Positions 151 through 64,000 of a DNA stretch of 64,000 nt are shown here, piece after piece. Every line of letters starts with the position of its first letter. Within the stretch, counting starts at the first letter, position 1. The position numbers and the translations under genes were made by a program. Source of the DNA: a virus; IMG/VR virus record IMGVR_UViG_3300047322_000252, positions 32,001 to 96,000 of that record; one strand, written 5' to 3'. Under the pieces are notes generated by a model. It searched no databases and had not been told where the DNA came from. It was given only the letters and a program-made list of their open reading frames with translations.

Positions 151-189
151 GTTCACCTCCTTCCGTGGTCGCTCGCTACTGTAGGTGTT

Positions 190-1791
190 GTGACGACCCT
201 CTACGAGGAACTGCCCCCGGAGCTACAGGCTCCAGCGGAGGACGACTTCCTCGATGAGGACGAGGACCAGCCGTTCGACCCGGACCCCTTGGAGGAAGAG
301 GAGCTAGACGAGTCCACCAAGGAGTTCGTGGACAAGCTCGTCAAGCGCTGCATCCTCTTCGTGGAGGAGTTCAACCAGGTCGAGTTCTACCCGTACCAGC
401 GGGAGTTGTCATATCGCATCATCCAGAGCCTGGTCCTCCACGACGCTGAGGAGATCACCGGCCTCGTGTCCCGCCAGGCGGGGAAGACCGAGACGCTGGC
501 CAACACCTTCGCCGGGTGCATGGTGCTGTTCCCCAAGCTGGCCCTCTCCTTCGAGTTGCTGGCTCGCTTCAAGAAGGGCTTATGGGTCGGGTGCTTCGCT
601 CCCACCGAGGACCAGTCCGAGACGCTGCACGGCCGCATCGTGGAGCGCTTGACCAGCGACGCCGCCACCGAGTTCATGATGGACCCGGAGATCGATGACG
701 AGGTCAAGGGCAAGGGCAAGCTCATCCGGTTGAAGAACGGCTCGATCGCCCGGCGCCAGACCTGTAACCCGAAGGCGAAGATCGAGGGCAAGACCTACCA
801 CGTGATCGTCATAGACGAAGCCCAGGACGCCAGCGAGGACGTGGTGCGCAAGTCGGTCCATCCCATGATGGCCGCTACCGCTGGCTCCATGGTGAAGATC
901 GGCACGCCCTCCTACATCAAGGGCGACTTCTACCGGGCCATCCAGTTGAACAAGCGGCGCATGGCGGGACGGGGTCGTCGGCAGAACCACTTTGAGTACA
1001 ACTACAAGATCGTCAGCAAGTACAACCCGGACTACGCCCGCTACATCGTCCAGGAGAAGCTGCGGCTGGGTGAGGACTCCGACGAGTTCCAGATGAGTTA
1101 TAACATCAAGTGGTTGTTAGAACAGGGCCAGTTCGTCACCGACGAGGTGATGGACGGCCTGATGGACCCCAGCATGCCGCTGGTGCGCTCCTGGTTCCGC
1201 AGCCCGGTGGTGGTGGGCATCGACCCGGCCCGCATCAAGGACTCCACGGTGGTGACGGTGTGCTGGGTGGATTGGGACTTCCCCGACGCCTTCGGCTTCC
1301 GTGAGCATCGCATCCTCAACTGGCTCGAACTGCACAACATGCCGTGGGAGGAGCAGTACTTCCAGATCGCTGACTTCCTGGACAACTACCGGCTGAGCTA
1401 CATCGCCGTGGACGCTCAGGCGATGGGCAGCGCCGTGGCCGAGCGCTTGCAGGTGCTGTTCGGTTCTCGGGCCGAGGTGATCCCGATGGGGTCTGACACC
1501 AAGGCCCAGGGCATCCGCTGGAAGAACCTCCAGACCCTGCTCGACAGGCGTCTGCTGGTGTATCCGGGCCACTCCAAGGCCCGCCGTACTCGTGTCTGGA
1601 AGAGGTTCCGGCGCCAGATGGCTGACGTCATCAAGGTGTTCCGAGCAGGGCAAATGCTGGTTGAGGCGCCCAACGAGGCCGAGGCCCACGACGACTACGT
1701 GGACTCGATCGCACTGGCCTGTGCGGCCTCCATGATTGAGGCCACACCAGAGGTCGAGGTGATCGAGTCACCCTTCTACAGCAGGAGGTAA
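190..1791 (+). CDS. terL: Terminase large subunit
   Basis: Walker A SRQAGKT, Walker B VIVIDEAQ, RNase H-like GIDPA...D and HDDYVDS; GTG at 190 chosen as probable start. Confidence 0.93.
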   Translation: MTTLYEELPPELQAPAEDDFLDEDEDQPFDPDPLEEEELDESTKEFVDKLVKRCILFVEEFNQVEFYPYQRELSYRIIQSLVLHDAEEITGLVSRQAGKTETLANTFAGCMVLFPKLALSFELLARFKKGLWVGCFAPTEDQSETLHGRIVERLTSDAATEFMMDPEIDDEVKGKGKLIRLKNGSIARRQTCNPKAKIEGKTYHVIVIDEAQDASEDVVRKSVHPMMAATAGSMVKIGTPSYIKGDFYRAIQLNKRRMAGRGRRQNHFEYNYKIVSKYNPDYARYIVQEKLRLGEDSDEFQMSYNIKWLLEQGQFVTDEVMDGLMDPSMPLVRSWFRSPVVVGIDPARIKDSTVVTVCWVDWDFPDAFGFREHRILNWLELHNMPWEEQYFQIADFLDNYRLSYIAVDAQAMGSAVAERLQVLFGSRAEVIPMGSDTKAQGIRWKNLQTLLDRRLLVYPGHSKARRTRVWKRFRRQMADVIKVFRAGQMLVEAPNEAEAHDDYVDSIALACAASMIEATPEVEVIESPFYSRR

Positions 1792-1854
1792 CCCATCTTG
1801 CTGCGACAACGTGCTTAACATGGCGCCGACCGCCACCCCTTGGAGGTAGCTATG

Positions 1855-2229
1855 GGCCTTGCCCCCGTTCCCCCGCTGGGACCCGAGAAGTTCCGGGGCG
1901 CCCAGTACGAGACAGATGTCGCTCAGAACGACCGGCGCCGTGGGCCGCTCCGCTTCGAGGAGGGCATCGCCACCGACACCGACGTGCCCCAGGACTTCCG
2001 GCGTGGTGCGTACGCCGACTGCGCCAACGAGCGGCCCGTCACCTGTGTCAAGGGTGCGGGCGAGACGCAGCGTGAGCGGGTCCACATGGGGTCGTCCACG
2101 TGGATCGAGGCGCCTGCCCTTCTGAGCGAGTTCGCCCATGGTGCCCAGATGTTCGGGCACGGCTTCGAGAGGGAGATGGGCGCCAACGCCATCCAGCGCC
2201 GCCCGAACCGGGCTGTCGTCACGGACTGA
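1855..2229 (+). CDS. Conserved phage hypothetical protein
   Basis: GGAGG RBS upstream; RRGPLRFEEGIATDTDVP motif recalled from genes next to terL in actinophage myoviruses; exact start (ATG ~1852-1855) uncertain. Confidence 0.7.
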   Translation, partial: GLAPVPPLGPEKFRGAQYETDVAQNDRRRGPLRFEEGIATDTDVPQDFRRGAYADCANERPVTCVKGAGETQRERVHMGSSTWIEAPALLSEFAHGAQMFGHGFEREMGANAIQRRPNRAVVTD

Positions 2230-2531
2230 TGCCGTACAGCCAGCCGTCCTCCCGCATGCGGGTCCTCGGGACTCAACTGCCGACCTCGCAGACGGTCCAT
2301 GACCGTGTGTACGGCCCGGCTCCGAGGGGACGGCCGGTTGTCATAGCACCGAAGAGCCTGGCGTTGAAGAAGGACGCCAGCCGCCCGCAGAACTTCCGTC
2401 TGCTCTGGCAGAAGATGAAGCCCGACGTCCTCCAGCGTGCTGAGGGGCTGATGGGCACCCACATGCCCCCGGCGTTGGAACCCGCTGCCCTGCGGGCCTA
2501 CAACACCAAGAAGCATCGGCTGGAGCACTGA
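2229..2531 (+). CDS. Hypothetical protein
   Basis: TGATG overlaps on both sides (MPYSQPSSRM...). Confidence 0.7.
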   Translation: MPYSQPSSRMRVLGTQLPTSQTVHDRVYGPAPRGRPVVIAPKSLALKKDASRPQNFRLLWQKMKPDVLQRAEGLMGTHMPPALEPAALRAYNTKKHRLEH

Positions 2532-4102
2532 TGGTTGCTCGCAAGAAGCCACCTCCGGACAGCCGGGTCACCCCGCCGCCCGGTCGAGCACTGCGTACCG
2601 AGGATCTGACGCCCCAGGGGCGCAACAAGCTGGACCAGCGCATGTCCCGCCTGGGCAACGCCAAGACGGGCCAGCGCACCATCATGCGGCGCTTGGCCAA
2701 GCAGGCGGTGGACCCGAACGCCTCGGAGGAGACTCGGGACCAGTCGGCTCGTCGTCTGGTGACGCACAAGGCCATGAAGGCAGCCGGGGCCTTCGTGGAC
2801 CGTGACATCACCATGGAGAACGCTGTCGAGTCGCAGACGGGCTACGTCAACCGGGGCCGGGAGCGGGGGCATCGGGACTTCGAGTCTGGCCTGCCCGGTA
2901 TGCACACCGACCGCCGTCCCACTGACCGGCCGGTGATGGGCCTGAGTGATCTGGGCGCTGACTGGTACTTCGAGCACCACGGCAAGCTCGCTGGTGTCTC
3001 CAAGGAGACGGGCATCGACAAGGAGCGGGTGATCACCGGCTCCACGGTGATGTCACCACAGAACAACCCTGTGCAGGAACTGGCAGCGGTGCATGCGCTG
3101 GCTCGTGCTCACGCCGACCCCACGGCCCGGGTCAAGGTGTCACCGCAGGCGGTGGAGGAGTCTGAGGACAAGTCGATCGCTGACTGGACAGGCCGATCGG
3201 TCCACCCCGGCGAGATGCAGTCGCACCAGTTCGCTGCGTTGAAGGCGCCCAAGGTGCGGGGCCACGTCCAGACCGAGGGTGACGTGAACCTGGCTCCCAT
3301 GGCCAAGGGTGGCACCACCGAGAACGTCACCAAGTCGATCGACGTCCTGCGGGGCAACACGGCGCCCGAGGACGCCATCGATCCCCATGGGTCGCCCAAG
3401 GTCCACAGCTACCGAGAGGCCATCCGCTCTAGCGACCCCTCCGAGCAGCACGTCCACGAGGAGTTCCTGGGGCGCATGGACAACGTGCTGCGCCAGCTTC
3501 CAGGCCAGCAGCGCATGGACACCTTCGGCTTGAAATCCTCTACCGAGGGCATCCTGGACCCGCACCACCCCATCGCCAACGACACCTGGATGCAGGCGGC
3601 GCAGTCAGGCCAGCGGCCCGAGGTGGTGGACACCGGGCGGTCAGGCAAGGCTCGTTGGCAGTCTCCGGCCAAGTTCGGCGTAGGGGAAGCGGGGTCTGCC
3701 AACGAGAAGAAGCTCACCTCTGGTGGCATCGTCAAGGGTGGTTCGCCCGCCATGATCCGTCACGCCTGGGGCCAGGAGTCGGTGGAGCGCACCGGGGCTG
3801 AACTGGGCAAACGCAACGACGAGATCGTGCCCTCGGTGGGTGTCCAGGGCGTGGTGTGGACCGAGATTCGTCGTCAGGCCGGTGGGGGCAAGGACGCTGA
3901 GTACGAAGGTCGAGTGGCGGCACATCAGGCCAGCCAGCGGTCCCCGCTGCGTCCTGGCCGGGGCCAGAAGTCTCAGACCATGTTCCATGCTGGTGAAGGC
4001 GGTACCGAGACGGTCAATCCGGCTGCGGTGTTGTCACAGTCCCGGCAACTAGCCCTGCGGAAGACGGCTGCTCGTGGTGTGCAGGGAGAGTTGTTCGGGT
4101 GA
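2531..4102 (+). CDS. Protein with HhH-GPD/DNA glycosylase-like (DUF7178-like) domain
   Basis: Motif series WY...MSPQN...SPKVHSY...NDTW...P..VQGVVW resembles the phage glycosylase-like family; basic N-terminus. Confidence 0.55.
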   Translation: MVARKKPPPDSRVTPPPGRALRTEDLTPQGRNKLDQRMSRLGNAKTGQRTIMRRLAKQAVDPNASEETRDQSARRLVTHKAMKAAGAFVDRDITMENAVESQTGYVNRGRERGHRDFESGLPGMHTDRRPTDRPVMGLSDLGADWYFEHHGKLAGVSKETGIDKERVITGSTVMSPQNNPVQELAAVHALARAHADPTARVKVSPQAVEESEDKSIADWTGRSVHPGEMQSHQFAALKAPKVRGHVQTEGDVNLAPMAKGGTTENVTKSIDVLRGNTAPEDAIDPHGSPKVHSYREAIRSSDPSEQHVHEEFLGRMDNVLRQLPGQQRMDTFGLKSSTEGILDPHHPIANDTWMQAAQSGQRPEVVDTGRSGKARWQSPAKFGVGEAGSANEKKLTSGGIVKGGSPAMIRHAWGQESVERTGAELGKRNDEIVPSVGVQGVVWTEIRRQAGGGKDAEYEGRVAAHQASQRSPLRPGRGQKSQTMFHAGEGGTETVNPAAVLSQSRQLALRKTAARGVQGELFG

Positions 4103-5787: not shown

Positions 5788-6609
5788 ATGAGCCAACTGG
5801 ATACCGGGAGTGGGTTCATCCAGGGACAGGGCGTCGAGCCTGCGCAGCCTCGTACGGCTGCTGACGTGCAGGCGCCGCCCCCGCAGCCTGGACAGAACGG
5901 TCCTCTCGTGATCGTGCAGGGTGGGCAGACGGGACCGGGGCCGACACCGCAGAACGGTCGCTTCTACTCGGAAGAGGACGTCGCCCGCATGCGGGAAGAG
6001 ACGGACGGCCGTCTGGCCGAGATGCAGGCGCAGCTACAGCAACTCACCACCGACCGGGAAGAGCGGGAGGCCGCTGCGCAGGCTGAGCGTGATCGTCTGG
6101 CGCAGGAGGCCCGTCAGGCGTCCGAGGCCGAGATGGATGTGCGCACCCTGCTGGAGACTCGGGACAAGGAGTGGAACCAGCGCATCGAGGCGATCGAAGA
6201 GCAGCGCCAGCGGGACCAGGCCATCTTCGAGCGGGAGCGGGAGTGGAACGAACTCCAGAACTACCGCCGTGCCCGCATCGAGCAGGAGGAGCAGTTCCTG
6301 CTGCCCGACCTGCGTGATCTCATCCAAGGCAACACCGTGGGCGAGATCGACCAGGCCATCGAGGACATGAAGCAGCGCACCCAGACCATCGCTGCCAACT
6401 TCCGAGAGGCCATGACGGATGCTCGTCCTCTCGCTCGTGGAGCGGCCCTCACCGGCCAACCGTCCATGGGTGGTCCGATGGAGCAGCAGCCTGGTGTTGA
6501 GCAGATCAGCATCCAGGACATCAAGGGCATGGACAACAAGACGTACGGCCAGTACCGGGACCGCCTGATGCGCTATGCGACTCAGAGCGGCCAAGCACCA
6601 CCGCAGTAG
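5788..6609 (+). CDS. Capsid scaffolding protein
   Basis: E/R/Q-rich coiled coil immediately upstream of the capsid gene. Confidence 0.8.
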   Translation: MSQLDTGSGFIQGQGVEPAQPRTAADVQAPPPQPGQNGPLVIVQGGQTGPGPTPQNGRFYSEEDVARMREETDGRLAEMQAQLQQLTTDREEREAAAQAERDRLAQEARQASEAEMDVRTLLETRDKEWNQRIEAIEEQRQRDQAIFEREREWNELQNYRRARIEQEEQFLLPDLRDLIQGNTVGEIDQAIEDMKQRTQTIAANFREAMTDARPLARGAALTGQPSMGGPMEQQPGVEQISIQDIKGMDNKTYGQYRDRLMRYATQSGQAPPQ

Positions 6610-6630
6610 TCACAACAAGAGAGGATTCTC

Positions 6631-8400: not shown

Positions 8401-8973
8401 ATGAGCCTGGTCACTGTCCACGGCCCCAACACGATGTACACCACCGAAGGCGGGGGAGCGTCAATCCCGTCGTCCGGGGGCGGCATTGCCCAGGCCACCA
8501 AGAGTCCCACCAACGGCCTCCAGTTCTCCTTCTCGGTGCCCAACCCCGGCGCCCGCCCGGCTGCCGACTTCGACTGGACCTTCACCGGCCCTGGCAGCCC
8601 CGCAGCGCAGCCCGACAAGTTCAGCGGCACGGTGCTCTTCACCGGGGCCGGTGCGGTCAGCATCATCTGCACGGTGGCGGCGGGTGCTGGCCCGCCTGCT
8701 GGTGGCACCTACACCGTCAACGCCACGGCGACGGCGGGCACGCCTCGCATGGTCGAGCGGAGCGCTGAGCCGGACATGAGCAAGCCAGCGTTGAAGCCCG
8801 AGGAGTCAACGCCCGAGGTGGAGGTGGGCTACGACCCCGCCGCTCACACCGTGGACGAGGTGATCGAGTACGCCGAGGAGCATCCGGACCAGGTCCCCGA
8901 CATCTACGCCGCCGAGCAAGCGGGCAAGCAGCGCTCCACGCTGTTGTCACATCTGGAGCACATGCAGGCGTAG
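8401..8973 (+). CDS. Putative decoration protein (Ig/PKD-like N-terminus, small helical C-terminus)
   Basis: FDWTF..G.P beta-sandwich pattern; C-terminal TVDEV...EQAGKQRSTLL. Confidence 0.55.
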   Translation: MSLVTVHGPNTMYTTEGGGASIPSSGGGIAQATKSPTNGLQFSFSVPNPGARPAADFDWTFTGPGSPAAQPDKFSGTVLFTGAGAVSIICTVAAGAGPPAGGTYTVNATATAGTPRMVERSAEPDMSKPALKPEESTPEVEVGYDPAAHTVDEVIEYAEEHPDQVPDIYAAEQAGKQRSTLLSHLEHMQA

Positions 8974-11350: not shown

Positions 11351-11539
11351 GTGGACATGCAGGTCAGGGTCGATGTCACCGAAGACGAAGGCGTGCGTGT
11401 TACGACAACCTACGGGCCGGTCCTGTTGTCCGTAGTCTTCGACCTGGCCGACGAGGAGGCAGTCATCGACGTCATTCGCCAGGGCTTCGCAGATGCCCGC
11501 AAGCTCCATGAGGAGAAGGTCCATGTGCTCCCCGGCTGA
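11351..11539 (+). CDS. Small hypothetical protein
   Basis: GAGGAG RBS; coding-like composition. Confidence 0.55.
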   Translation: MDMQVRVDVTEDEGVRVTTTYGPVLLSVVFDLADEEAVIDVIRQGFADARKLHEEKVHVLPG

Positions 11540-12326
11540 GATCGCTCAGAAGGTGCGCTACAAGCTGAGGGACTTCGGGCACTACTTCGAGGTGCCCTAC
11601 ACAGCGGCGCCCATCTACACCATGCGGCTGCCTCACCCCCTGGTGGACAAGGACAAGATCACCGTCTGGCAGCCCGACTCCACGGAGATCCCGTCTGGCC
11701 CAGACACCTGGGAACTGGACCAGCGCAACGGCATCATCAAGTTCCGGGACCCCAACACCATCGCTGACGGCGTGGGCGTCTCGGGCTATTACTACGAGTG
11801 GTTCCTGGACGAGGACCTGGAGTACGCCGCTGGCATCATGACCAACCAGCACCTCTACGACTCCGACAAGGCTGACAACGGCAGCGACTTCTCGCCCGTC
11901 GAGTGTGATGTGCTGGCGACCGGCGCTGCGGCTCAGGCGTACTACGCCCTCATGGCCGAACTGTCCCTCGACGTTGATGTCTCAACACCAGAGGGCATCA
12001 GCATCCCCGCTACGCAGCGCTTTCGCCAGGCGACGGAGATGGCGGGGCACCTCGCCCAGGTCTACACCGACGAGGCAGCCATGCTGGGTGTGGGCCTCAA
12101 CAAGGTGGAGCAGTTCTGGTTGCGCCGGGTGGCCTACCTCACCAACCGCCTCGTGCCCATCCTGCGGGAGCGGGAAGTGGATGATCCCCATCCTCCGCTG
12201 CGACTGCTGCCGCCCATCCCTGCGGGCCTCCAGGACGGCGAGGGCGACGCCGTCTACATGCCTGAGCCGCCTGGTGGCATCGGCTACGGCGGCTGGACCA
12301 CTCTCGGTACGAGTGGGTTGCCATGA
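11523..12326 (+). CDS. Putative head-tail adaptor/neck protein
   Basis: Position; DVSTPEG.SIP..QRF motif. Confidence 0.6.
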   Translation: MCSPAEIAQKVRYKLRDFGHYFEVPYTAAPIYTMRLPHPLVDKDKITVWQPDSTEIPSGPDTWELDQRNGIIKFRDPNTIADGVGVSGYYYEWFLDEDLEYAAGIMTNQHLYDSDKADNGSDFSPVECDVLATGAAAQAYYALMAELSLDVDVSTPEGISIPATQRFRQATEMAGHLAQVYTDEAAMLGVGLNKVEQFWLRRVAYLTNRLVPILREREVDDPHPPLRLLPPIPAGLQDGEGDAVYMPEPPGGIGYGGWTTLGTSGLP

Positions 12327-12862: not shown

Positions 12863-13800
12863 TGGCTGCCCCCGGCTCCGCTACCGCAACGGTCTGGCCC
12901 GACTGGGCCAACGGCTTCGACAACTGGCGTGAGCAGGACGCCGAATGGCTGCGCAACCGCATCGTCAGCCCCTTCCCTGATGTCGCAACACGTGACACCA
13001 TCATGAACCCGGTGGCCAAGAGCTTCGGCATGATGTCGATCCTCCAGGCGGGGTCGGTGGCCGGGGCGCCGGACTTCTGGAACGGGGCGGCGTGGGAGTC
13101 CATTCGGTACCCCAACCTGAACGTCACCTCGGACGCCACCAGCGTCACGTTGAAGCGCCAGGGAGCGGGGTCCGGCATCCAGTTGATGAACGACGGCTCC
13201 GTGAACACGGTGAAGAACGTCGTCGGCACAGGTGGCATCGGCTACGTGGGGGACACCACCGGCATCTCCATGAAGATCGGCGCCAAGACGGTCAAGTTGG
13301 CCACCGATGCCACCCAGTTGACCATCGACTCCCCCGTCTCGATCGCTGGGGGACTGACACTGACAGGCGCCCTTAGCGTAAATAGCGTAAATGTGACGGC
13401 GGGGCTGACCGTGGGGGGCACCCTCGGCGCTCAGGCCATCACGGCGACCACGCTCACGGCCAGCGGCCTGGTGGCGGGTGGCAGTGTCAATGGTGGAGAT
13501 GCACAGTTGGCGACGGTGGGCATCTTCGGTGTGCTGCGTCATCGCAGTGGCGGCACCGGGGTGGTGAGCGTGGGGTCGGACTCCACGTTGAAGATCGATG
13601 GGGCGAGCCTCGCCGTCAACCCGCCGACCACTTTCGCTGGCACGATCACGGCCAATGGGGTGACCAACTTCGTGGGGCAGCCCAACTTGGCCATCACAGG
13701 CAAGACGTCGGTCATGGTGGCGGGCATCGTCGCCGTGGCGGGCAACACGCCACCAGGGTCGCTGAACGCCCCTGACGGAACCTTGTACGTCACCTACTAG
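12862..13800 (+). CDS. Virion fibre-like protein
   Basis: G/T/V-rich beta-repeat sequence; C-terminal APDGTLYV. Confidence 0.6.
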   Translation: MAAPGSATATVWPDWANGFDNWREQDAEWLRNRIVSPFPDVATRDTIMNPVAKSFGMMSILQAGSVAGAPDFWNGAAWESIRYPNLNVTSDATSVTLKRQGAGSGIQLMNDGSVNTVKNVVGTGGIGYVGDTTGISMKIGAKTVKLATDATQLTIDSPVSIAGGLTLTGALSVNSVNVTAGLTVGGTLGAQAITATTLTASGLVAGGSVNGGDAQLATVGIFGVLRHRSGGTGVVSVGSDSTLKIDGASLAVNPPTTFAGTITANGVTNFVGQPNLAITGKTSVMVAGIVAVAGNTPPGSLNAPDGTLYVTY

Positions 13801-20250: not shown

Positions 20251-20263
20251 CCCCAACCTGGCG

Positions 20264-47857: not shown

Positions 47858-48282
47858 GCGCACAGGATTGGTACCGCAGGGCACTGGGAGGAGGGTCGCC
47901 AGCGCCTGCGGCCCCCCAAGCGTACGTGCCCCAGCAGCAGGTCCCAGCGGGCTATCAGGCCCCTCCGGGCTACCAACTGGTGCCCGTCCAGCAGCCCAAC
48001 GGCAACGGGGCCATCCCCTGGAGCCAGATCCAACAGCAGCAGGTGCCGAACATCGACACCCGCACCATCCCTCGTGGTGCTGTGACACCAGAGAACTTCC
48101 TGGAGATGGCGAAGTTCTGGAGGGGTGGCGAGGGGCAGAAGGCGGCGCTCGACTGCCCGCAGTGCGGAGGGGTGCTCTTCCGTCGCTTCGAGGGCAGGCG
48201 TGAAGCCGCACCACTGTGTGAGTCGTGCGGCTTCAACGGCCTCTTCGTGCAGGGTCAGGGAGCCGTCGCCGTCAACGGGTGA
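47854..48282 (+). CDS. Hypothetical protein, P/Q-rich with C-terminal Zn ribbon
   Basis: CPQCG...CESCG. Confidence 0.7.
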   Translation: MSAQDWYRRALGGGSPAPAAPQAYVPQQQVPAGYQAPPGYQLVPVQQPNGNGAIPWSQIQQQQVPNIDTRTIPRGAVTPENFLEMAKFWRGGEGQKAALDCPQCGGVLFRRFEGRREAAPLCESCGFNGLFVQGQGAVAVNG

Positions 48283-48506: not shown

Positions 48507-49577
48507 ATGCCTGACACATCTCTCGACACGGTGCTGACGAGGGTCAACAAGAACCTCGGGGAAGGGACCCTCATCCGGGGGTCCGACTTGAAGAACCACC
48601 AGATCCCCCGCATCACGTCCGGGTCGTTGGCCCTGGACATGGCGCTGGGCGGCGGCTGGGCCATGAACTGTTGGTCCGAGCTTCTGGGTGAACCGTCCCA
48701 TGGGAAAACGGTTCTCGCTCTCAAAACGATCGCCGCCAACCAACGTATCCACAAGCGTTTCCACACCCTGTGGATAGCCGCCGAGCCGTTCGTACCCGCC
48801 TGGGCCGAGACGTGCGAGGTCGATCTCGACCGGGTGATGATCGCTGACACCCGGGTGATGGAGGACGCCTACCAGATCGTCTGCGAGATGATCGACGGGC
48901 GCCTCGTGGACGCCGTCGTCATCGACTCACTCTCTTCGCTCACGCCCACCGAGGAGGACGAGAAGGCCATGGACGACTGGCAGGTGGGCCTCGGCGCTCG
49001 CCTGACGGGCAAGTTCATGCGCAAGTCCAGCGTGGCCCAGCGCCGCAGCCTCACCGAGCCGGACCGCAACTGCTTCGGGCTGATCATCTCGCAGTGGCGG
49101 GAGAAGATCGGCGTGATGTACGGCGACAACCGAGTCAGCCCCAACGGGCGGGCCAAGGAGTTCTTCTTCATGACCCGGGTGGAGGTGCGCCGGGATGACT
49201 GGCTGGGGCCGGACAAGCACCGGGTGGGCCAGACGTTCAAGGCCCGCATCATCAAGAACAAGACGGCGCCGCCCCAGCGCTCAGCCGTGTTCGACTTCTA
49301 CTGGGAGGACGACGGCAACCACCGGGCCGGGCGTTATGACATCGGGAAGATGCTGGCCAACATCGGCATGGACCTGGGTGTCGTGGAGTTGAAGGGGGCC
49401 TGGTACTACTTTGCTGGGCAGAAGTGGAACGGCAAGGAGAAGTTCTGGGAGGCAGTCGATCAGGATGAGTTGTTACAACGAGGTCTGGCCAAGGCCATCC
49501 GTGGCCTCGCCCTGCCGGGCATTGACATTGACGACCCCGCCCCGGCCAAGGCCAGGCGGGCGTTGAAGCGTGCCTAA
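48507..49577 (+). CDS. recA: RecA-like recombinase
   Basis: SGSLALD.ALGGG, GEPSHGKT, VIDSL, Q.REKIG..YG, KNK. Confidence 0.95.
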   Translation: MPDTSLDTVLTRVNKNLGEGTLIRGSDLKNHQIPRITSGSLALDMALGGGWAMNCWSELLGEPSHGKTVLALKTIAANQRIHKRFHTLWIAAEPFVPAWAETCEVDLDRVMIADTRVMEDAYQIVCEMIDGRLVDAVVIDSLSSLTPTEEDEKAMDDWQVGLGARLTGKFMRKSSVAQRRSLTEPDRNCFGLIISQWREKIGVMYGDNRVSPNGRAKEFFFMTRVEVRRDDWLGPDKHRVGQTFKARIIKNKTAPPQRSAVFDFYWEDDGNHRAGRYDIGKMLANIGMDLGVVELKGAWYYFAGQKWNGKEKFWEAVDQDELLQRGLAKAIRGLALPGIDIDDPAPAKARRALKRA

Positions 49578-53531: not shown

Positions 53532-53833
53532 TCCGTGTCGAGTCTCGTGGTTCGATATGGCTGATCGACCAGGACCTGGGTCGGTACATGCGACTCCCGA
53601 AGCACGAGATACCACGAGATCCAGAGTGGTCGCTTGGCTGGCTGTCCGACCTGGAGTGGCATCCCTTCGAGTCGTGGTGGATCACCACCGAGAGCTTCGG
53701 CGCCAAAGACGACAACGGGACGCTCTTCCTGTACGCACCGCCCACGCTCGTGATCCGACCGTCCGACTCCCGTCGCAAGGTGTACGCCCCGGACGCCTAC
53801 ATCCAGAACCATGATGTGACAGCAACACCGTAG
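53528..53833 (+). CDS. Hypothetical protein
   Basis: ATGA overlap; S.WLID....RY.R.P. Confidence 0.6.
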   Translation: MIRVESRGSIWLIDQDLGRYMRLPKHEIPRDPEWSLGWLSDLEWHPFESWWITTESFGAKDDNGTLFLYAPPTLVIRPSDSRRKVYAPDAYIQNHDVTATP

Positions 53834-54835: not shown

Positions 54836-56593
54836 ATGCCCACCTTCTACGGAGCCATCAACCTCTCCAAGAACGAGCTACAGAACGCCGTCGTCCAGAA
54901 CCTGGGCACGGCGCCATCGTCGCCGGTCAAGGGCCAGGTCTACTTCGACTCCACCGCCAACATCCTGTACTGGTACAACGGCTCGCAGTGGGTCGCCGCC
55001 CAGGGTGGAGCGGGTGCTGTCCCAGCGGACACGACCACCACGTTGGCGGTGGGTGGTGCGGCAGCGCCAGGTGCGAGCGCTCTCTACTCCCGAGGGGACC
55101 ACGCTCATGGCATGCCCTCCTTTGGAGCGGCTACTGCGGACACTGCCTTCGGCACAGCCAAGAGCGACGGTGTTGCGACAACAATAGCTCGCTCTGATCA
55201 CACGCACGGCAACCCGGCGCTGGGTACGACACCTTCCACTGCCGCTATCGGTGACGCAGCAGCCGGGGGAGTCGCTACCGATGCGGCCAAGACGGACCAC
55301 AAGCATGGGATGCCTGCTTTCGGGGCCATCTCCGGGGAGTCCACCTTCGGTGCCGCTGCATCCAACGGGTCGGCAGCCACCATCGCCCGGTCGGACCACC
55401 TTCACGGCAACCCGACCCACGTCGCTGCGGATCACGCCACCATCCCCATCTCAGCGTTGGCGGCGCCCACGGCTGATGTGAACTGGGGCGCCTTCAAGAT
55501 CACCAACCTCAACTCGCCCACTGGGAGCAACGACGCCGCCAACAAGGGCTACGTGGATGGCCTCGTCAACGGGCTGTCGTGGAAGGACGCTGCGAGGGCA
55601 GCAACCACTGCCAACATCGCTCTCACCGGAACGCAGACGATCGATGGTGTGGCCTGCATCGTCGGTGATCGGGTGCTGGTCAAGAATCAGACGACGGCCA
55701 GCGGCAACGGTGTCTACTTCGTCGCTTCCGGCGCCTGGGGACGAACCACTGACACGCAGTTCGGCACCGACATCGTAGGCATGGCGATCTACATCGGTGA
55801 GGGTACGACGCAGGCCGACACGACCTGGACGTTGACGACGGACGCCCCGATCTCGATCGGTACGACGAGTCTGGCGTTCGCACAGACGGGCGGTCCAGGG
55901 GCGATCACTGCTGGCGCCGGTATGACGCAGGTGGGCAACACGCTCAACGTCATCGCCGGGGACACCACCCTGACCGTCGCCGCCGACGACGTGCGGGTGA
56001 ACACGGCGGTCATCGCCACGGTGGCCTCGGTAACGGCGGGTGATGCCGCCAACGTACCGAACACCCGGCAGGTCATCGCTGGTGCGGGCCTGACTGGTGG
56101 TGGTGCGCTCTCGGCTGACGCCACCCTCAACGTGGTCGCTGGGGACACCAGCCTCACGGTCGCTGCCGACTCGGTTGTTGTCAACACAGGAGTCATCGCT
56201 CCGACCAGTCGCCTCATCAACACCACGGCTCCGATCACTGGCGGCGGCAACCTCACGGCCGACCGGACGATCGCCATCACCAGCTTCGCCGGGAGCACTC
56301 CGGGAGCAGTGCCCAACTCACCAGGAGGCACGACCACCTTCCTGCGAGCGGACGGCACCTGGTCGGCACCAGCAGGAGGTGTCGGCAAGTACGCTGCCGC
56401 TCTCACCGGCACGGCCAGTCCCGAGGTGGTGACCCACAACCTGAACACCAGGGATGTGCAGGTGCAGGTGCTCAACGGGGCCAGTCCTTACACCGCCGTG
56501 GTGGTGGACTGGGATGCGACAACAGTGAACACGATCACCATCCGCTACAACCCGAACCTCGGAGCCGGGTATCGAGTGGTGGTGGTGGGCTGA
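54836..56593 (+). CDS. Tail fibre-like protein
   Basis: Repeated R.DH.H; ITNL..P....DAANK.YVD; GDRVLVKNQT...NG.Y; AG.GLTGGG repeats. Confidence 0.8.
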   Translation: MPTFYGAINLSKNELQNAVVQNLGTAPSSPVKGQVYFDSTANILYWYNGSQWVAAQGGAGAVPADTTTTLAVGGAAAPGASALYSRGDHAHGMPSFGAATADTAFGTAKSDGVATTIARSDHTHGNPALGTTPSTAAIGDAAAGGVATDAAKTDHKHGMPAFGAISGESTFGAAASNGSAATIARSDHLHGNPTHVAADHATIPISALAAPTADVNWGAFKITNLNSPTGSNDAANKGYVDGLVNGLSWKDAARAATTANIALTGTQTIDGVACIVGDRVLVKNQTTASGNGVYFVASGAWGRTTDTQFGTDIVGMAIYIGEGTTQADTTWTLTTDAPISIGTTSLAFAQTGGPGAITAGAGMTQVGNTLNVIAGDTTLTVAADDVRVNTAVIATVASVTAGDAANVPNTRQVIAGAGLTGGGALSADATLNVVAGDTSLTVAADSVVVNTGVIAPTSRLINTTAPITGGGNLTADRTIAITSFAGSTPGAVPNSPGGTTTFLRADGTWSAPAGGVGKYAAALTGTASPEVVTHNLNTRDVQVQVLNGASPYTAVVVDWDATTVNTITIRYNPNLGAGYRVVVVG

Positions 56594-58786: not shown

Positions 58787-59275
58787 ATGCCCTGGCCGTT
58801 GACACAACCATCATCGCTGTTGGCTACTGATGTCACAGCACAGACGACCAGGCACGCCGACGACCACAACAAGACCGCCGCTCTTCTGGCTGTGCTCACA
58901 CCGGGGCCGTGGATCAACGTGAATCCGGTTGGTGGCAATCTGCCTGCCTTCGCCACCGGCTGGTACAACTTCGGTGGTGGGTGGCAACTTGCCCGCATCC
59001 GTCGAGAGGGCGGTGACATATGTCGCATCGAGGGCTTCGTGGCTGGGGTACCCGGCTCCATCCTCACGGTGCCGATCGGCTACCGCCCGGCGCAGAACAT
59101 GCGGTGGGTCGGTGGGGCTGATACGTCGGCCGGGTCCCCTGCTGCGGCGTTCTGCCGTCTCGACATACTGAGCACCGGGGTCATGCAGATGAGCCTCTGG
59201 GCTGGCGGTGGGTCGGGCAACGTCGCAGCCATGTCCATCAACATGACGTACGCCATCGACCCCTCCCAGCTATGA
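58787..59275 (+). CDS. Minor tail/fibre tip-like protein
   Basis: P.GYRP...R.DI...G. Confidence 0.65.
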   Translation: MPWPLTQPSSLLATDVTAQTTRHADDHNKTAALLAVLTPGPWINVNPVGGNLPAFATGWYNFGGGWQLARIRREGGDICRIEGFVAGVPGSILTVPIGYRPAQNMRWVGGADTSAGSPAAAFCRLDILSTGVMQMSLWAGGGSGNVAAMSINMTYAIDPSQL

Positions 59276-62200
59276 GCTTCGATCCCTCTGGTATCCCGGG
59301 CCTCACGCTGTGGCTGGACGCCTCCCGTCTCGGGCTGGTCAACGGCGCTGACGTCGTCAACTGGCCCGACCTCTCGCCGTTCAACCAGCGCTGCAACTAC
59401 GAGTTCCAGCCGGGCACCAACACCCCTCCGGTGATGCGGACCGGAGTCAACGGCCTCAACGGACGTCCGGTGGTGCGGTACACCACCCTCCAGGGGCGGC
59501 ACATGTGGTGGGGCCTGCCGATCGACCGGGAGTACACGATCATCTACGTCGGGCGTGTGTGGGACGCCACCACGGCGAACATCGGTCGGGTCGTGGCGGG
59601 GGACGGCAATCAGGTCAACATCCTCTTCGGGTTCTGGGGCGGGAACGAGGACGCCCTCTTCGTAGGGGCGTGGCCTCTCGCTGACTTGAAGAAGGCGGCG
59701 ACCACCACCTGGAAGCTGTACTCCTTCGACGCCACTGCTGCGGCTAATCCCCGCATGTTCACCAACGGTGTCTTCCTGTACGGCAACACTGTTGCGACAA
59801 CAGGGGTGCTGAACACCCTGTGCATCTCGGGCTACAGCGCCAACAACACGGCTGAGTCATCCAACTGCGAGATGGCCGAACTCATGGTGTTCAGCCGCAA
59901 GCTGTCGAACCTGGAGCGCCAGCAGGTGGAGAGCTACCTGCGCTCCAAGTGGCTGAACGCCGCCCCGACTGTGCCGGTGGCCCTCCTCCAGGATGCCTTC
60001 GCCACTGGCATCGACCGGGTCACAACTTGGCCCGCCTCCACCGGGGCGCCGAACGTCTACTACGACACCCCCAACAAGCGGGTGGGTATTGTCACAACAC
60101 CGAGCTACTACTCGTTGAAGACCCCCACCACGCTCACGTACAACCTGCTCAACTCGGGTATTTACGCCAAATGCACGCCCAGTCCTGCGGTGGCGGGCCG
60201 GGAGTTCAACTTCTCCCTCCAGAACACGGACCGCTCGTTGCTCGTCAGCTTCACCGTGTACGACACCAACCTCATCGCCTGGACCAACCCCGAGCCTGGT
60301 GGGGTGGACTGGGGGACGGCTACCTACGATCCGGTGGCCCACCAGTGGCTGCGCATGCGTGCTGACAACACCAACATCTACTGGGACGTGTCGGCCGATG
60401 GTCTGGCGTGGCATCCCTTCGCCACCGCCCCGGTCCTGCCTGCGATAGCGACCATGGGGCGTAGCTGGGACTTCAACGGCTACTCGGGCAACCACGACCG
60501 CATAGGTGTGCAGAACCAGACGCTTACCGGCCTCGCTCCGATCAACCCCCCGGGGGGTGGCTCGTACGGGGTCGGGACGTTCTACATGAGCGACACCACC
60601 CCACCCTGGACTCCATGCGTTGCCCGGGTTGCCGACACCGGCCTCGGTGGGTTCGCTGCCACGCACGCCAATGTCACCGGCACACTGCGGCCGATGGCAC
60701 CAGGCTGGACGTCGCTCAGCTTCGCCACGCCTACCAGCACGGCTCCGCAATCTTGGACAGCCACTGATGGCACCAACACGGCGTGGCGCACGAACACTGC
60801 GATCACCACCCCGCAGCTTGTGTACGGCTACACCAACACCGATGCGAGCACTCCGAACTTCCCGGTCGGCAGCATCTTTGCGATCTTCGTCAATGGTGTG
60901 GAGGTGGCTCGCACCTACGTCACCGTGGCGACCAGCGTCTTGGAGGTGCGGACCGAGATCCCGTTCGCCATCAACGATGTGTTGTCACTACGTTACTACA
61001 ACCCCACTGGCAGCAACATCAACATGGTGGACAGCATCCAGGCTGGTCCGGGCACTCGTCGTCCGTACCTGCGGGTCACTGGTCGTATGGCTGAGACGGC
61101 TGGCGACTACTGGATCTGCCCCACCACCGGCACGTACAACCTGCACGCTGAGATCTGCAATGGAGCGTCCTTCGGGTTCGGTTACATGATCACGGTCAAC
61201 CGCAAACCGTTGGCAAGCGTCACCATCCCCTACATCATCAGCAACACCGTCGCTGACTACTCCGTCCAAACGATGGACGCCAACAGCGTGGCGTTGACGG
61301 CGGGCGACATGGTGGGCCTCGGTGCGTTGATGAGCGACTACAACTCGGGCTGGCTCAACCGTGTTGACGGTGCTGAGGGAACCGCCAAGCCGTACCTGCG
61401 TGCCACCCGAGTCGTTCCCTCGGCCATCATCTCGAACGATTCCTGGATGGTGAACTTCTCCCAGGGTGGCCCGGCTGGCTCGCCGGACGCCTTCGTGGAC
61501 CACGTCAACGTGCCTCCGGTGGACCAGTCATACTCCTACGGTGGCTATGGCGATGGCCCGTACGGCTCGCCGCCTCCGGTCTGGGAGCCGCTGCAAGGTC
61601 CGGCTGGTCCATCAGGTGACCCGGACCTCGGCTTGTACCGCCCCGTCTCGGGCCGTTTGACCTACCCAGCGAACTGGAGTGAGTACGGCCAACCGTTCGG
61701 CAACAGCAACGTGTACCGGGACCGACAGGGGGTGTGCCACCTCAACACTACGATCGCCGGTCCGGCCAGCTTCGCTGCTGGTTCGACCTGCTGCTACTTA
61801 CCGATCGGCTTCTTCCCTCTGAATAGAGTGATGCTGCCAGGCCTCATCGGCAACCCGCAGACAGGTTGTCGGATCGACGTCAACAACACTGACGGCAGCA
61901 TCCAGGTCAACTCCACTACTCCAGCGGGCGAGACTTTCGTTGCCCTTGATCTCGTGTGGTTCTCGGCGGTGCCGTACCTGGCCGTGCTCGATGGCCTCGT
62001 TGTCACATCGGTGGTCTTCCAGAGTGGGAGTAGCTACCTGGTGACGTACACAGCAGGGCACCTGGTGAACCTGGCCGGGGTTGTCACAGCAATACCAGCC
62101 GGGTCCGCCTCAGTGGTGGCGTCTGGCGTTACTTGGTTCTGCCTCATCATCACTGCGGCTGGAGGGGTAGGCCAGAGTTATGGGAACAACTCTGAGGCTT

Positions 62201-62322: not shown

Positions 62323-63202
62323 TCCTTGGACGCTGGTGACCGGCCCGGTCGGGGCGAAGGGTACGCCGCAGTCCGTTCCCAGCGTGCCGGTGCGGCGCTA
62401 CTGCTTCGACTTCCCCAGCACTGGTAACCCGGCTCATGGCGGGTTCCTCTTCGCCTACAACGTCAAGAACTACGTGACGCAGACCGGCGCCCCCCACCAG
62501 CGGCTTGTGGCGTATCGCACGGCGCAGGGGCAGGTCGTCCTCGAAGGCCTCATCTATGCGCTCACGCCGGACACCGGCATCCTCTTCTACTTGCCGTGGG
62601 ACATGCTTCCGTATCCTGAGACGCTTCGCCTGGTGTGTCTTCAGAACACCGGCAACCAGCAGGGCCGGTCCGACATCTACTACAACAGCACCTACGGCTG
62701 GGTCTACGAAGTGAACAGCACAGCGGTCACGTACCAGAACCAGTTCACGGCGGTGCATGCCATCTATCAGACCCACGTGCCTGTGATGTGGGTGGACTTC
62801 GGCATGAAGGTGAGCGCCCAGCAGGGACCGGGGTACACCACCATCTACACGGTGGGACCAGGGCAGATCAGCGGCTACTTGAAGGGCGCTCCGTTAACGG
62901 TTACGTTTCCGGCGGTGCAAACGGTTCAGTTGCCGTACACACCGTCCGGCTCCAACCTCACTGCCTGGCTCTACTACGACGCAGCGGCGGGGGCGTTCAA
63001 CCACCGTGTCGGCAACCAAGGCACGTTTGACGTCTACCCCACGCCGTGGATACAGATGGCCGACCGTGGTCAGGTTGTGTTGGCACAACACGTCATGAAC
63101 TACGCCGCTTCGTCGTACGATCCGACCTCGCTCATGGACCACCGCTGGCTTCTGCGTGGTCCGCTCGACGTCCCTTCCGGCACTCCCGGAGCCTTGATCT
63201 GA
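62315..63202 (+). CDS. Minor tail/fibre-like protein
   Basis: N-terminal W.L.TGP.G shared with neighbours. Confidence 0.6.
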   Translation: MSNPWTLVTGPVGAKGTPQSVPSVPVRRYCFDFPSTGNPAHGGFLFAYNVKNYVTQTGAPHQRLVAYRTAQGQVVLEGLIYALTPDTGILFYLPWDMLPYPETLRLVCLQNTGNQQGRSDIYYNSTYGWVYEVNSTAVTYQNQFTAVHAIYQTHVPVMWVDFGMKVSAQQGPGYTTIYTVGPGQISGYLKGAPLTVTFPAVQTVQLPYTPSGSNLTAWLYYDAAAGAFNHRVGNQGTFDVYPTPWIQMADRGQVVLAQHVMNYAASSYDPTSLMDHRWLLRGPLDVPSGTPGALI

Positions 63203-63621
63203 TGGCCGGGGAATGGGCACGGCTCACCGGGCCGAAGGGTGATCGGGCTACTCCGTACGTGGTCCACGCCATGCCAGTCATCCAGGTCCTCGTGCTCCTC
63301 ACGAACGGTGGTTCCCAACTCATCCAGTACGACACCTCCTGGACCGTGCCTCGTGTTGTTAGAACATGGGATAACATGTGTTTCATGGAGGGATTGATCC
63401 GTCGCACCGACAGTGCCACCATCGCTGGTGGGATCATCTGCAATCTTCCGGCTGGCTTCCGGCCCGAAGCCCGAACGCTGCTCAACAGTGTGGCGTCGGC
63501 CGATGGCATCAACTGCTTCGCCCGGGTCGATGTTGACCCCAACGGCGACGTGACCTACCAGGCGTCGATGGCTGCATCGGGCTGGATCTCCCCCGCAGGT
63601 CGCTGGTACGCCGTGCAGTAA
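63202..63621 (+). CDS. Minor tail/fibre tip-like protein
   Basis: W.RLTGPKG; LPAGFRP...RVDV..NG. Confidence 0.65.
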   Translation: MAGEWARLTGPKGDRATPYVVHAMPVIQVLVLLTNGGSQLIQYDTSWTVPRVVRTWDNMCFMEGLIRRTDSATIAGGIICNLPAGFRPEARTLLNSVASADGINCFARVDVDPNGDVTYQASMAASGWISPAGRWYAVQ

Positions 63622-63658
63622 CACGTCCGGCCTGGTCCCAGGGTCTACGCTCCCCCTC

Positions 63659-64000
63659 GTGCCGTCGTTCACCACCTTCCAGGGCCGTGAATACCCAGCT
63701 AGCGACGCCCCGTTTGATGTCACAAGAACCGGAGGGCCGCAGCCCTTCTTCCGTGACGACCTGGATGCACGGCGCAGCATGTGGCGCCAGACGCCCGAGG
63801 CGCAGTACCCGGACGGCTACCTCGGCACGCTGAACAGTCGGCGCTCCGACCGGCTGATGAACAACCTCATCGACCGGGCCAAGCAGCGGCCCTACACGAG
63901 GGGCATCCACAAGGGCGAGCGGGTCGAGCACCGGGACTACTTCTGGCCCGAGGAGTTCAACCCTTGGACGGGCCTCGAACTCCAGGCCATCGGTGAGAAG
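63659..64000 (+). CDS. Conserved phage hypothetical protein, truncated by window
   Basis: GTG after TACGCT; MPSFTT...EAQYPDGYLGT...RGIHKGER...YFWP. Confidence 0.7.
   Translation, partial: MPSFTTFQGREYPASDAPFDVTRTGGPQPFFRDDLDARRSMWRQTPEAQYPDGYLGTLNSRRSDRLMNNLIDRAKQRPYTRGIHKGERVEHRDYFWPEEFNPWTGLELQAIGEK

Follow-up and report, generated by a model that had tools for sequence, protein, structure and literature searches.

How does a short palindrome come to be scattered through a phage genome, largely inside genes, and what reads it there? The question is raised by an uncultured soil phage of actinobacteria (genome of 118 kb, G000 below), for which a stretch of 64,000 nucleotides, here called the window, carries many copies of the degenerate 13-bp palindrome tGtTGT-S-ACAaCa. 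At up to one mismatch to TGTTGTNACAACA the window holds 9 sites where 0.03 are expected, at up to two mismatches 43 (38 coding and 5 intergenic) against 1.15, and at up to three 79 against 13.7, about 14 of the 79 being attributable to chance; none of the 100 dinucleotide shuffles that supplied these expectations attained the observed counts. A test independent of any earlier consensus gives the same word, since no 7-mer is more over-represented than TGTSACA (47 against 19.4 expected), whose flanks reconstruct tGtTGTsACAaCa. The top palindromic dyads of the whole genome are TGTT-N5-AACA (18 against 0.9) and TTGT-N1-ACAA (13 against 0.6). Conservation does not extend into the flanks beyond the 13 bp, and the copies show no orientation (central C in 22, central G in 24). 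A previous sequence-only reading had reported 63 copies of a 13-bp palindrome placed at regular intervals. The dispersed palindrome is genuine, and what is enriched is a degenerate motif rather than exact copies: TGTTGTNACAACA itself has no match in the window, and the entire 118 kb contains one perfect copy. The 63 positions carry one (9 sites), two (31), three (22) or four (1) mismatches, and three two-mismatch sites, at 39851, 46210 and 56176, had been overlooked (Table 1). The regular spacing was not borne out, as the gaps between sites, 1513 bp on average, vary (CV 0.85) not significantly less than those of randomly placed sites (CV 0.97, P = 0.19).

Table 1. Sites in the window with at most two mismatches to TGTTGTNACAACA; numbers in the last column are the limits of gene calls
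Site	Position	Mismatches	Location
TGTTGTGACGACC	186..198	2	ORF 55-1791; in-frame GTG at 190
GGTTGTTAGAACA	1112..1124	2	coding (55-1791); not kept in G001-G004
TGATGTCACCACA	3048..3060	2	coding (2531-4102)
AGTAGTCACAACA	6605..6617	2	end of gene 5788-6609; capsid gene starts 26 nt on
TGTTGTCACATCT	8942..8954	2	coding (8401-8973)
TGATGTCTCAACA	11975..11987	2	coding (11493-12326); sole coding site retained in position by both G001 and G002
TGATGTCGCAACA	12978..12990	2	coding (12862-13800)
TGGTGTGACAACG	16860..16872	2	coding (16416-17213)
CGTTGTTACAACA	21094..21106	1	coding (20382-23003)
TGCTGTCACAGCA	22358..22370	2	coding (20382-23003)
TGTTCTGACACCA	24227..24239	2	coding (23000-24694)
TGTTGTAACAACG	26244..26256	1	between 24936-26192 and 26583-28076
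TGTTGTTAGAACT	26713..26725	2	coding (26583-28076)
AGTTGTATCAACA	27733..27745	2	coding (26583-28076)
TGATGTGACAACG	28861..28873	2	coding (28073-29656)
TGCTATCACAACA	28951..28963	2	coding (28073-29656)
TGTTGTCACATCT	29678..29690	2	coding (29653-30885)
TGTTGTGTCACCA	30024..30036	2	coding (29653-30885)
TGTTATTACAACA	30691..30703	1	coding (29653-30885)
TGTTGTGTCAGCA	31973..31985	2	coding (31125-32060)
CGTTGTCAGAACA	37667..37679	2	coding (37455-37790, minus strand)
TGTTGACAGAACA	38747..38759	2	coding (38037-39788)
TGTTGACACCACA	39851..39863	2	coding (39843-40187)
TGTTGTGACAGCG	40445..40457	2	coding (40265-43423, minus strand); first of the gene's five sites
TGTTGTGACAAGA	41187..41199	1	coding (40265-43423, minus strand)
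TGTTGCGTCAACA	41771..41783	2	coding (40265-43423, minus strand)
TGTTACGACAACA	42341..42353	2	coding (40265-43423, minus strand)
TGCTGTGATAACA	42830..42842	2	coding (40265-43423, minus strand)
TGTTGCGACATCA	46210..46222	2	coding (45408-47537)
ATTTGTGACAACA	47174..47186	2	coding (45408-47537)
TGCTGTGACACCA	48078..48090	2	between 47476-48033 and 48507-49577
AGTTGTTACAACG	49468..49480	2	coding (48507-49577)
TGATGTGACAGCA	53812..53824	2	intergenic; gene 53861-54826 starts 49 nt on
TGTTGCGACAACA	55171..55183	1	coding (54836-56593)
TGTTGTCAACACA	56176..56188	2	coding (54836-56593)
TGATGTCACAGCA	58828..58840	2	coding (58787-59275)
TGTTGCGACAACA	59790..59802	1	coding (59272-62322)
TATTGTCACAACA	60087..60099	1	coding (59272-62322)
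TGTTGTCACTACG	60980..60992	2	coding (59272-62322)
GGTTGTCACAGCA	62079..62091	2	coding (59272-62322)
TGTTGGCACAACA	63078..63090	1	coding (62315-63202)
TGTTGTTAGAACA	63354..63366	1	intergenic (62315-63202 / 63659-64213); TAACAT hexamer 5 nt downstream
TGATGTCACAAGA	63715..63727	2	coding (gene from 63659)

About two thirds of the genome's sites (52 of 81) are coding, an assignment based on our own 156 GC3-based gene calls, so that some sites labelled intergenic or coding may be misplaced. These 52 coding sites at up to two mismatches compare with 2.04 (maximum 7) in 300 protein-preserving synonymous-codon shuffles of the genome and with 0.71 when codon order is shuffled; the first of these nulls had been proposed beforehand as the decisive check, and the enrichment survives it. 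The sites make up 0.57% of codons, yet they hold 17% of ACA, 10% of GTT and 24% of all TTA codons, which confirms the earlier suspicion that the palindrome forces the use of rare codons. All three reading frames are used (judged by their centres, 33, 15 and 5 sites; a further 28 centres are intergenic), the favoured one being nnT-GTT-GTS-ACA-ACA. Twenty of the 38 coding contexts able to hold a site with at most one mismatch are realised at two mismatches or fewer, and coding DNA contains no perfect copy, though five contexts permit one. The data thus support selection at the DNA level within coding sequence. Explanations that need no protein, namely a hairpin in RNA or single-stranded DNA, a translational pause at rare codons, remnants of mobile promoter cassettes or a mutational bias, receive almost no credence from us. 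Palindromes can fold and rare codons are indeed concentrated at the sites, but synonymous shuffling retains codon usage and yields 2 sites against 52, a pause would not produce sites that use every frame and also lie between genes, the flanks of coding sites hold no cassette remains, and a stem of 6 bp with a loop of 1 nt cannot form.

The window does not include the strongest copies, which belong to the early region at 1-13 kb of the genome. The genome has 24 sites with one mismatch or none; 13 of them are found within its initial 13.2 kb, 10 of this group being intergenic. Here a module is repeated in which a GGCCGAAWGGCC-type hairpin is followed by the palindrome, 6-7 nt, a TAnnnT -10 box, a further 6-8 nt and a leaderless ATG; the palindrome spans roughly -31 to -19, and no -35 consensus is visible. 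Nine G000 sites, six being early-region ones, pass a filter for the palindrome with TAnnnT; in four of the nine no start codon follows the hexamer. TAnnnT is found downstream of 7 of 29 intergenic sites versus 2 of 52 coding sites, and the sites in genes are consistently weaker than those in promoters. Because the strongest copies sit inside early promoters, transcription control is the best-anchored role of the word. On balance we regard the word as probably the recognition site of a phage-encoded dimeric transcription regulator, of which the coding copies would be weaker sites. The strongest copies would then serve as operators within a recurring early-promoter cassette, and the bound protein would occupy the place where sigma otherwise contacts the -35 region; from that position it may either shut the early promoters off, which we judge the more likely, or stand in for the missing -35 element, whose absence would fit an activator too.

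Comparison with relatives (G001-G004, L006 and L007) shows that the word changes as a unit. In G001 it reads TGTTGA-S-TCAACA, both halves being altered symmetrically, with 36 sites at up to two mismatches in 54.6 kb and only 8 of the T-type; the top dyad there is TTGA-N1-TCAA (13 against 0.5). G001 shares the promoter modules of G000, with the same geometry in 13 of 13, and the word is switched between the two phages at four orthologous promoters. Positions 6 (T to A) and 8 (A to T) have changed together, a covariation that favours reading of double-stranded DNA, since a hairpin with those bases in its loop needs no such change. A two-fold symmetric protein reading double-stranded DNA is thereby supported, as far as sequence comparison can tell. 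In the tree G000 and G001 are sisters (support 99/95 and 100/99), and the T-type G002/L007 and L006 lie outside them. G001 (18 against 1.16) and G002 (13 against 0.86) are likewise enriched in coding sites, and the more distant G003 carries an unrelated palindrome, TAYCNNGRTA (28 against 1.4 genome-wide, 13 against 2.8 in coding DNA). Among the mapped cases a site is kept at the orthologous coding position in 2 of 8 for G001, 1 of 8 for G002, 0 of 17 for G003 and 0 of 12 for G004; site density is inherited, and site places are not.

The sequence-only reading had proposed a dimeric binder of phage or host origin, and its dimeric part agrees with this symmetry. A host protein recruited or soaked up by the phage, be it a transcription factor or one of the nucleoid, would suit promoters that must be active when no phage protein has yet been made and that show no -35, the more so as the binder on the phage side is only a candidate. 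It is nevertheless rather unlikely, because the sister phages differ in their word at orthologous promoters while the outgroups share that of G000; the word of G003 is unrelated, and the module of a winged-helix gene described below, if active, does without the word. Decidedly unlikely, too, is a lattice that marks phage DNA as self, for instance against a nuclease or host defence, with a private word per lineage. The inherited genome-wide density, the quickly changing lineage-private word and the apparently virulent nature of the phage, in which searches found neither kind of integrase, would be in keeping with it, but it is pure conjecture: no link to a nuclease or to defence was found, and the exact promoter geometry would be left unexplained. 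The comparison rather points to a fast-evolving, phage-encoded regulator gene with a dimeric product.

The operator of KorB is a 13-bp palindrome with a central S, present at 12 sites on plasmid RK2. Like the word of G000 it is a short palindrome read by a dimeric global regulator, with sites adjoining promoters or kilobases away from them (PMC11790492). This precedent favours a nucleoid-type or ParB/KorB-like protein that would load at dispersed sites and compact, localise or silence the genome, promoter copies being one use among others; so do a density of about 0.5 sites per kb across all gene classes, conserved where position is not, and the large coding share. We nonetheless consider such an organiser improbable. 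The best sites hold a fixed promoter position, coding sites are the weaker ones, and the analogy with matS, SBS and NBS or with ParB found no support, given the irregular spacing and six frames of the genome without a ParB_N domain. KorB, moreover, is a plasmid-borne CTP clamp of the ParB family (PMC11790492), and G000 has far more and weaker sites inside genes.

For the regulator that we favour, a tentative candidate, put forward on its predicted fold, is a 228-aa winged-helix protein (genome 116852-117538; HTH_5, 28.4 bits, E 1.5e-6), the sole clear HTH match in a Pfam scan covering 70 of the 156 gene calls. Small ribbon-helix-helix proteins would evade Pfam. A six-frame search with HTH_3, HTH_17 and Sigma70_r4 gave no better candidate: two HTH_17 matches were sub-threshold, one of them (106900-106992) broken by a stop, and the remaining HTH-type matches lie within the winged-helix gene itself. 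Proteins suggested previously fared less well, with a weak Rho_N match only at 31125-32060, no domain match at 32966-33982 or 32463-33122, and a sub-threshold MerR_1 (E 0.002) at 44185-44610. The winged-helix gene is syntenic in G001 and its recognition helix differs (SETTTSSHLKRL versus STSCVQGHVRRL), a difference that may be plain divergence as it concerns two phages only, at 36% identity over 56 aa. The palindrome is missing from the gene's own promoter module in both phages, no homologue was found in G002 (a fragment), G003 or G004, and the protein had no match among 50,697 phage records.

In T4-type phages, PeSL (promoter-early stem-loop) cassettes join a repeated stem-loop to an early promoter between small early genes, and at T4 middle promoters the MotA box replaces the -35 element near -30. 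The modules of G000 resemble both, in the stem-loop and early-promoter cassette and in a factor site in place of the -35; it is a resemblance only, as PeSL cassettes are not known to carry a palindrome that is spread through genes as well, and the MotA box has no symmetry. The nearest precedents would seem to be the repeats of Cluster O mycobacteriophages and the stoperators. Corndog, of Cluster O, encodes a Ku-like protein, as does G000. Corndog and its relatives carry a 17-bp dyad repeat, TGTTCGGNNNCCGAACA, in more than 30 copies, some inside genes, with no orientation and, in that account, no known function (PMC4351075). There, too, a dyad word with outer TGTT...AACA is dispersed in a not obviously temperate actinobacteriophage; its arms, however, are invariant in 34 sites, about one third of them in coding DNA (PMC4351075), whereas the G000 copies are all but one degenerate and 52 of 81 coding. 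The fixed early-promoter place and the symmetric sister variant belong to G000, neither figuring in the portion of the Cluster O account consulted (PMC4351075), and no sequence relationship between G000 and the Cluster O phages was found. The stoperators of Streptomyces phage R4 and of mycobacteriophages in Cluster A (PMC9283540, PMC6550527, PMC10276819, PMC4351075) likewise place one regulator word at an early promoter and repeat it at numerous other positions in the genome, but they are asymmetric, oriented with transcription, mostly between genes of temperate phages, and bound by a monomeric immunity repressor (PMC10276819, PMC4351075), while the word of G000 is palindromic and mostly within genes, in a phage without an integrase as far as the searches show.

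A phage-encoded regulator accounts well for the promoter copies and not for the roughly 50 weak copies in late genes, which lack orientation and, on inspection of the site table by eye, show no link to gene starts. The coding and intergenic copies of the window would be weaker sites, kept through synonymous-codon selection at a set density rather than at set places. As low-affinity auxiliary sites they may serve as transcription roadblocks, or as a titrating sink that would tie the occupancy of the regulator to genome copy number.

The word dispersed over this phage genome is a degenerate 13-bp palindrome, tGtTGT-S-ACAaCa (the T-type), and it is as degenerate copies that its enrichment is borne out. 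The exact consensus has no copy in the window and a single copy in the genome, at 5561; the window holds 9 sites with at most one mismatch against 0.03 expected, 43 with at most two against 1.15, and 79 with at most three against 13.7. At two mismatches or fewer the genome as a whole carries 81 sites, 52 of them coding and 29 not wholly within a gene call, as judged from 156 GC3-based gene calls. Unbiased scans arrive at the same word, since TGTSACA ranks first among all 7-mers and has palindromic flanks, and the highest-ranking palindromic dyads in the genome are pieces of it. The sequence-only reading of this DNA had noticed the palindrome and proposed that a dimeric protein coats the genome at regular intervals. 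The 63 positions that it listed do carry sites, with one to four mismatches, and three two-mismatch sites were overlooked. The regular spacing did not hold up, the coefficient of variation being 0.85 against 0.97 for random placement (P = 0.19). Close pairs 13–45 bp apart number 4 against 1.8 and 9 against 5.7 expected, which is too few for a claim. In the literature searched, the four 13-mers turn up as strings in 6 papers, none bearing a microbial title.

The coding copies can be compared with what the encoded proteins would produce by themselves. In 300 synonymous shuffles, which preserve every protein and its codon usage, coding DNA yields 2.04 sites with at most two mismatches (maximum 7) against the 52 observed, and shuffling of codon order yields 0.71; a shuffled null of this kind had been set beforehand as a check on the earlier claim, and it did not refute it. 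The remark that the sites bring in codons otherwise avoided is likewise confirmed: the sites make up 0.57% of codons and take 17% of all ACA, 10% of GTT and 24% of TTA codons. Where the protein permits a site with at most one mismatch, 20 of 38 coding contexts are realised at two mismatches or fewer. This shows that selection is strong, roughly every second one of the most favourable coding contexts being taken, with rare codons as the price. The coding sites have no preferred orientation, with C as central base in 22 and G in 24 of the 52.

Outside the window, the first 13.2 kb of the genome contain 13 of the 24 sites with at most one mismatch, and 10 of these 13 are intergenic. Here the palindrome is part of a repeated cassette, namely a GGCCGAAWGGCC-type hairpin, the palindrome, 5–7 nt, a TAnnnT hexamer (TACTAT, TATACT, TACACT or TAGACT) and then, where one is present, an ATG 6–8 nt on; of the six modules in the early region, three have such an ATG, 7–8 nt past the hexamer. 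The cassettes are without a -35 consensus. Provided that transcription begins at the cassette ATG, the palindrome would lie at about -31 to -19, and the layout suggests that the early genes are leaderless. Four copies of an asymmetric form, TGTTCTGACAACA, are oriented with the genes, and a fifth copy, TGTTCTAACAACA, runs the same way. We also considered that the coding sites are hidden promoters, and rejected it because a TAnnnT hexamer stands at the right distance in only 2 of 52 coding sites, against 7 of 29 intergenic ones; the flanks of the coding sites hold no remains of a cassette.

Locations of the cassettes, genes and other features discussed (L-numbers are sequence loci; G000 is this phage, G001 its sister phage, G002 a fragmentary relative)
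Feature	Location	Remarks
Early-promoter cassettes, G000	L103:1100-9560 (genome 1-13 kb)	6 modules
Early-promoter cassettes, G001	40.6-53.6 kb	13 modules, A-type word, same geometry
Palindrome-less cassette of winged-helix gene	L106:780-852; G001 51457-51560 (reverse)	
Winged-helix gene	genome 116852-117538	228 aa
Densest coding cluster in the window	window 40265-43423, minus strand	five sites with at most two mismatches in a 1052-aa gene
Capsid protein	window 6631-7983	
WhiB-like factor	L104:9807-10061	E 6.2e-22
Early protein with LPXTG anchor motif	L103:3758-4381	
SNF2-type helicase, early region	L103:9541-11100	
Ku-like protein	L105:17503-18315	PF02735, E 3.9e-13
Stretch rich in inverted repeats, no called gene	L103:11100-12054	950 bp
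Similar stretch at the end of G002	48.1-49.0 kb	
Low-GC loci with false palindromes	L017, L032, L041, L044, L053, L054, L062, L066, L077	

Four related records were taken whole for comparison: the sister phage (G001), the fragmentary relative (G002), a more distant relative (G003) and a further one (G004). In midpoint-rooted capsid and portal trees G001 is the sister of our phage with 99/95 and 100/99 support, and G002 (locus L007) and locus L006 branch outside this pair. The word of the sister phage is a different one, the A-type TGTTGA-S-TCAACA, with 36 sites at two mismatches or fewer in 54.6 kb versus 8 T-type sites; among the dyads of this phage TTGA-N1-TCAA ranks first (13 against 0.5 expected). 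At three orthologous early genes, and at the perfect site at 5561, the T-type in our phage and the A-type in its sister occupy the same place. G002 (19 sites in 49 kb) and L006 (8 sites in 12.5 kb) retain the T-type, so by parsimony on these trees the A-type would be a recent symmetric change. Both halves have switched together, at positions that would form the loop of a hairpin, which suggests that a protein of two-fold symmetry reads the word in double-stranded DNA; to this extent the proposal of a dimeric protein is upheld, without the regular spacing attached to it. The difference between sister phages argues further that the reader is encoded by the phage and not by the host.

Conservation in relatives was also looked for, and it is found at the level of coding enrichment, which recurs in G001 (18 against 1.16) and G002 (13 against 0.86); individual positions are mostly not kept, the orthologous position of mapped coding sites being retained in 2 of 8 cases in G001, 1 of 8 in G002, 0 of 17 in G003 and 0 of 12 in G004. 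The T-type word stands at control level in G003 (2 sites), which has a palindrome of its own, TAYCNNGRTA, with 28 copies against 1.4 genome-wide; for coding DNA the figures are 13 and 2.8 (loci L091–L096). Inspection by eye shows a common repeat upstream of three copies, at 100614, 106055 and 106255, and a TAGAGT and an ATG after one of them. In G004 no clear word was seen in the scan. Apparent private palindromes in low-GC relatives were rejected, as they come from collagen-like coding repeats with a 9-nt period, which give strong false scores and are thus a trap for dyad scans.

In search of the reader, 70 of the 156 called proteins were scanned against Pfam and ten against PHROGs. Among the binders put forward by the sequence-only reading, the best match was a sub-threshold one to MerR_1 at 44185–44610. 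The only clear helix-turn-helix protein among the 70 is a winged-helix protein (HTH_5, 28.4 bits), whose gene comes first in the early array and has a syntenic counterpart in G001. Six-frame searches gave one Sigma70_r4 and two HTH_17 matches, all below the cut-offs; the Sigma70_r4 match and the weaker HTH_17 match are on this same gene, and the better HTH_17 match, at 106900–106992, is interrupted by a stop. If the word were the operator of an ArsR/MarR-type winged-helix dimer, the recognition helix would co-vary with it; the helix differs between the proteins of G000 and G001, a comparison of two data points only. Variants of the recognition helix are ETTTSS, ETTASG, ETTAAG, ESTVSG and TSCVQG. 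Nine homologues were found in a large protein collection; searches of viral and metagenome contigs with the winged-helix protein, the helicase, the alignment A1 and the homologue P0007 gave no relatives. The predicted structure, of modest confidence (mean pLDDT 62.7), has a winged helix and a C-terminal beta-barrel; Foldseek found no match in the PDB at E <=0.001, and its weak rows are ArsR/SmtB/MarR winged-helix proteins and an eIF5A-like barrel. The homodimer prediction scored 0.01 against a mark of 0.42 and counts neither for nor against. The winged-helix protein is a concrete, if weak, candidate reader of the word. Its own gene, in G000 and G001 alike, has a cassette with hairpin, TAnnnT hexamer and leaderless ATG and with no palindrome in the operator slot. 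If this promoter is active, the cassette works independently of the word, and repression would be favoured as the sign of regulation.

Two further repeats were observed in the genome. One is a second dispersed word, TTGACAYTGAC (mostly CATTGACAYTGACA), with 27 exact copies genome-wide, ten of them in the window at 8981, 9148, 25347, 29914, 33970, 34270, 39741, 46324, 49522 and 51528. Judged by eye, most copies point the same way as the genes, and nine are no more than 70 nt from a palindrome; G000 and G001 each have one copy just 3' of a weak palindrome and 5' of the winged-helix gene. The other repeat belongs to the early stretch without a called gene, which is rich in TGTGA-N6-TCACA-like inverted repeats, a geometry that we take to be of CRP type, together with copies of the palindrome. 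GTGA-N6-TCAC occurs 13 times in the genome against 2.7 expected, and one end of G002 resembles this stretch, which is possibly an origin or control hub.

The phage record, of which bases 32001–96000 are the window, is 118,220 bp long, has a G+C content of 65% and shows a terminal overlap of 127 bp; its capsid protein shares about 50% identity with its counterparts in Streptomyces phages pSt2308, GiJojo, BRock, LuckySocke and Alone3. The encoded WhiB-like factor, together with the apparently leaderless, -10-only promoters, fits an actinobacterial host. An idea of BRock, the nearest named relative, as T5-like, with first-step transfer, was dropped, as PMC7453282 describes it as a virulent myovirus. 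In the first 50 kb of BRock the early genes carry leaders, and a palindrome comparable to our word was not found. The early region of our phage is present in 24 DNA sequencing runs that carry the label rhizosphere or soil metagenome, and no RNA run is among those listed. Contigs from four DNA metagenome runs are near-identical to window 20001–40000 (0–2 differences per contig piece), and among the 40 of 245 differences listed there was no site variant, a sample with no power for testing conservation. The same four runs hold a second relative patchily similar to this part of the window, with less than 90% likeness.

Dispersed sites are known from several other systems. Stoperators, as in Cluster A mycobacteriophages and R4, are asymmetric, oriented with transcription and found in temperate phages (PMC4351075, PMC10276819). 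The word resembles them in standing at early promoters in addition to the coding sites elsewhere; it differs in being palindromic with a balanced central base, and the integrase and immunity repressor of a temperate phage were not found, six-frame searches of the genome giving no Phage_integrase (tyrosine integrase) or Resolvase (serine recombinase) domain and no HTH_3 protein. KorB of RK2 has mixed promoter-proximal and distant sites (PMC11790492), and our word is likewise present both at promoters and far away; PF02195, of the ParB family, had no match at E <=0.1 in six frames. In matS/MatP, SBS/SlmA and NBS/Noc a host nucleoid protein has sites limited to a chromosome domain. The sites of the phage span its whole genome, and the difference in word between sister phages would count against a conserved host protein. 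Nearest to our word comes the 17-bp dyad repeat of Cluster O mycobacteriophages, which are not obviously temperate; it has more than 30 invariant copies, about one third of them in genes and without orientation, and the account in PMC4351075 leaves its function unexplained and, in the part that deals with the repeats, does not describe promoter placement. Dyad symmetry and more than 30 scattered copies within and between genes are common to both. Unlike the invariant 7-bp arms and 3-bp spacer of Cluster O (TGTTCGG-N3-CCGAACA), our word differs in sequence and has 6-bp arms with 1 bp between them, and its copies are degenerate, only one in the genome being perfect.

Its constant place across the -35 region in many early promoters speaks for a role of the word in transcription control; together with its symmetric switch and its difference between sister phages, this leads us to interpret it as the operator site of a phage-encoded, two-fold symmetric transcription regulator. 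The copies in the window would be weaker sites for the same regulator, held at a set density, and those in genes may act as roadblocks or as a sink linked to copy number. A wider picture, to which we give a low probability, is that each virulent actinobacteriophage of this group has a private, fast-evolving palindromic 'identity word' with its own dimeric reader and two affinity tiers, with tight operators at all early promoters and a weak lattice in genes throughout the genome. The lattice would then make regulator occupancy depend on how many genome copies there are, as a timer of the early-to-late transition driven by replication, or else mark self DNA, and the symmetric switches between sister phages would play the part of immunity types among lytic phages.

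Phages without clear signs of being temperate have been known to carry dispersed palindromes since 2015, in an account that leaves them unexplained (PMC4351075). What is added here is a fixed promoter slot, about -31 to -19, that would tie the lattice to transcription control, and a symmetric two-base switch in a sister phage, in promoters and coding lattice alike, that amounts to a natural specificity-swap experiment, along with the weak candidate protein; the promoter anchor and the natural switch together make the question testable. If the coding copies are functional, synonymous sites in phage genes would constitute a regulatory layer, one that would be lost on recoding or genome synthesis.
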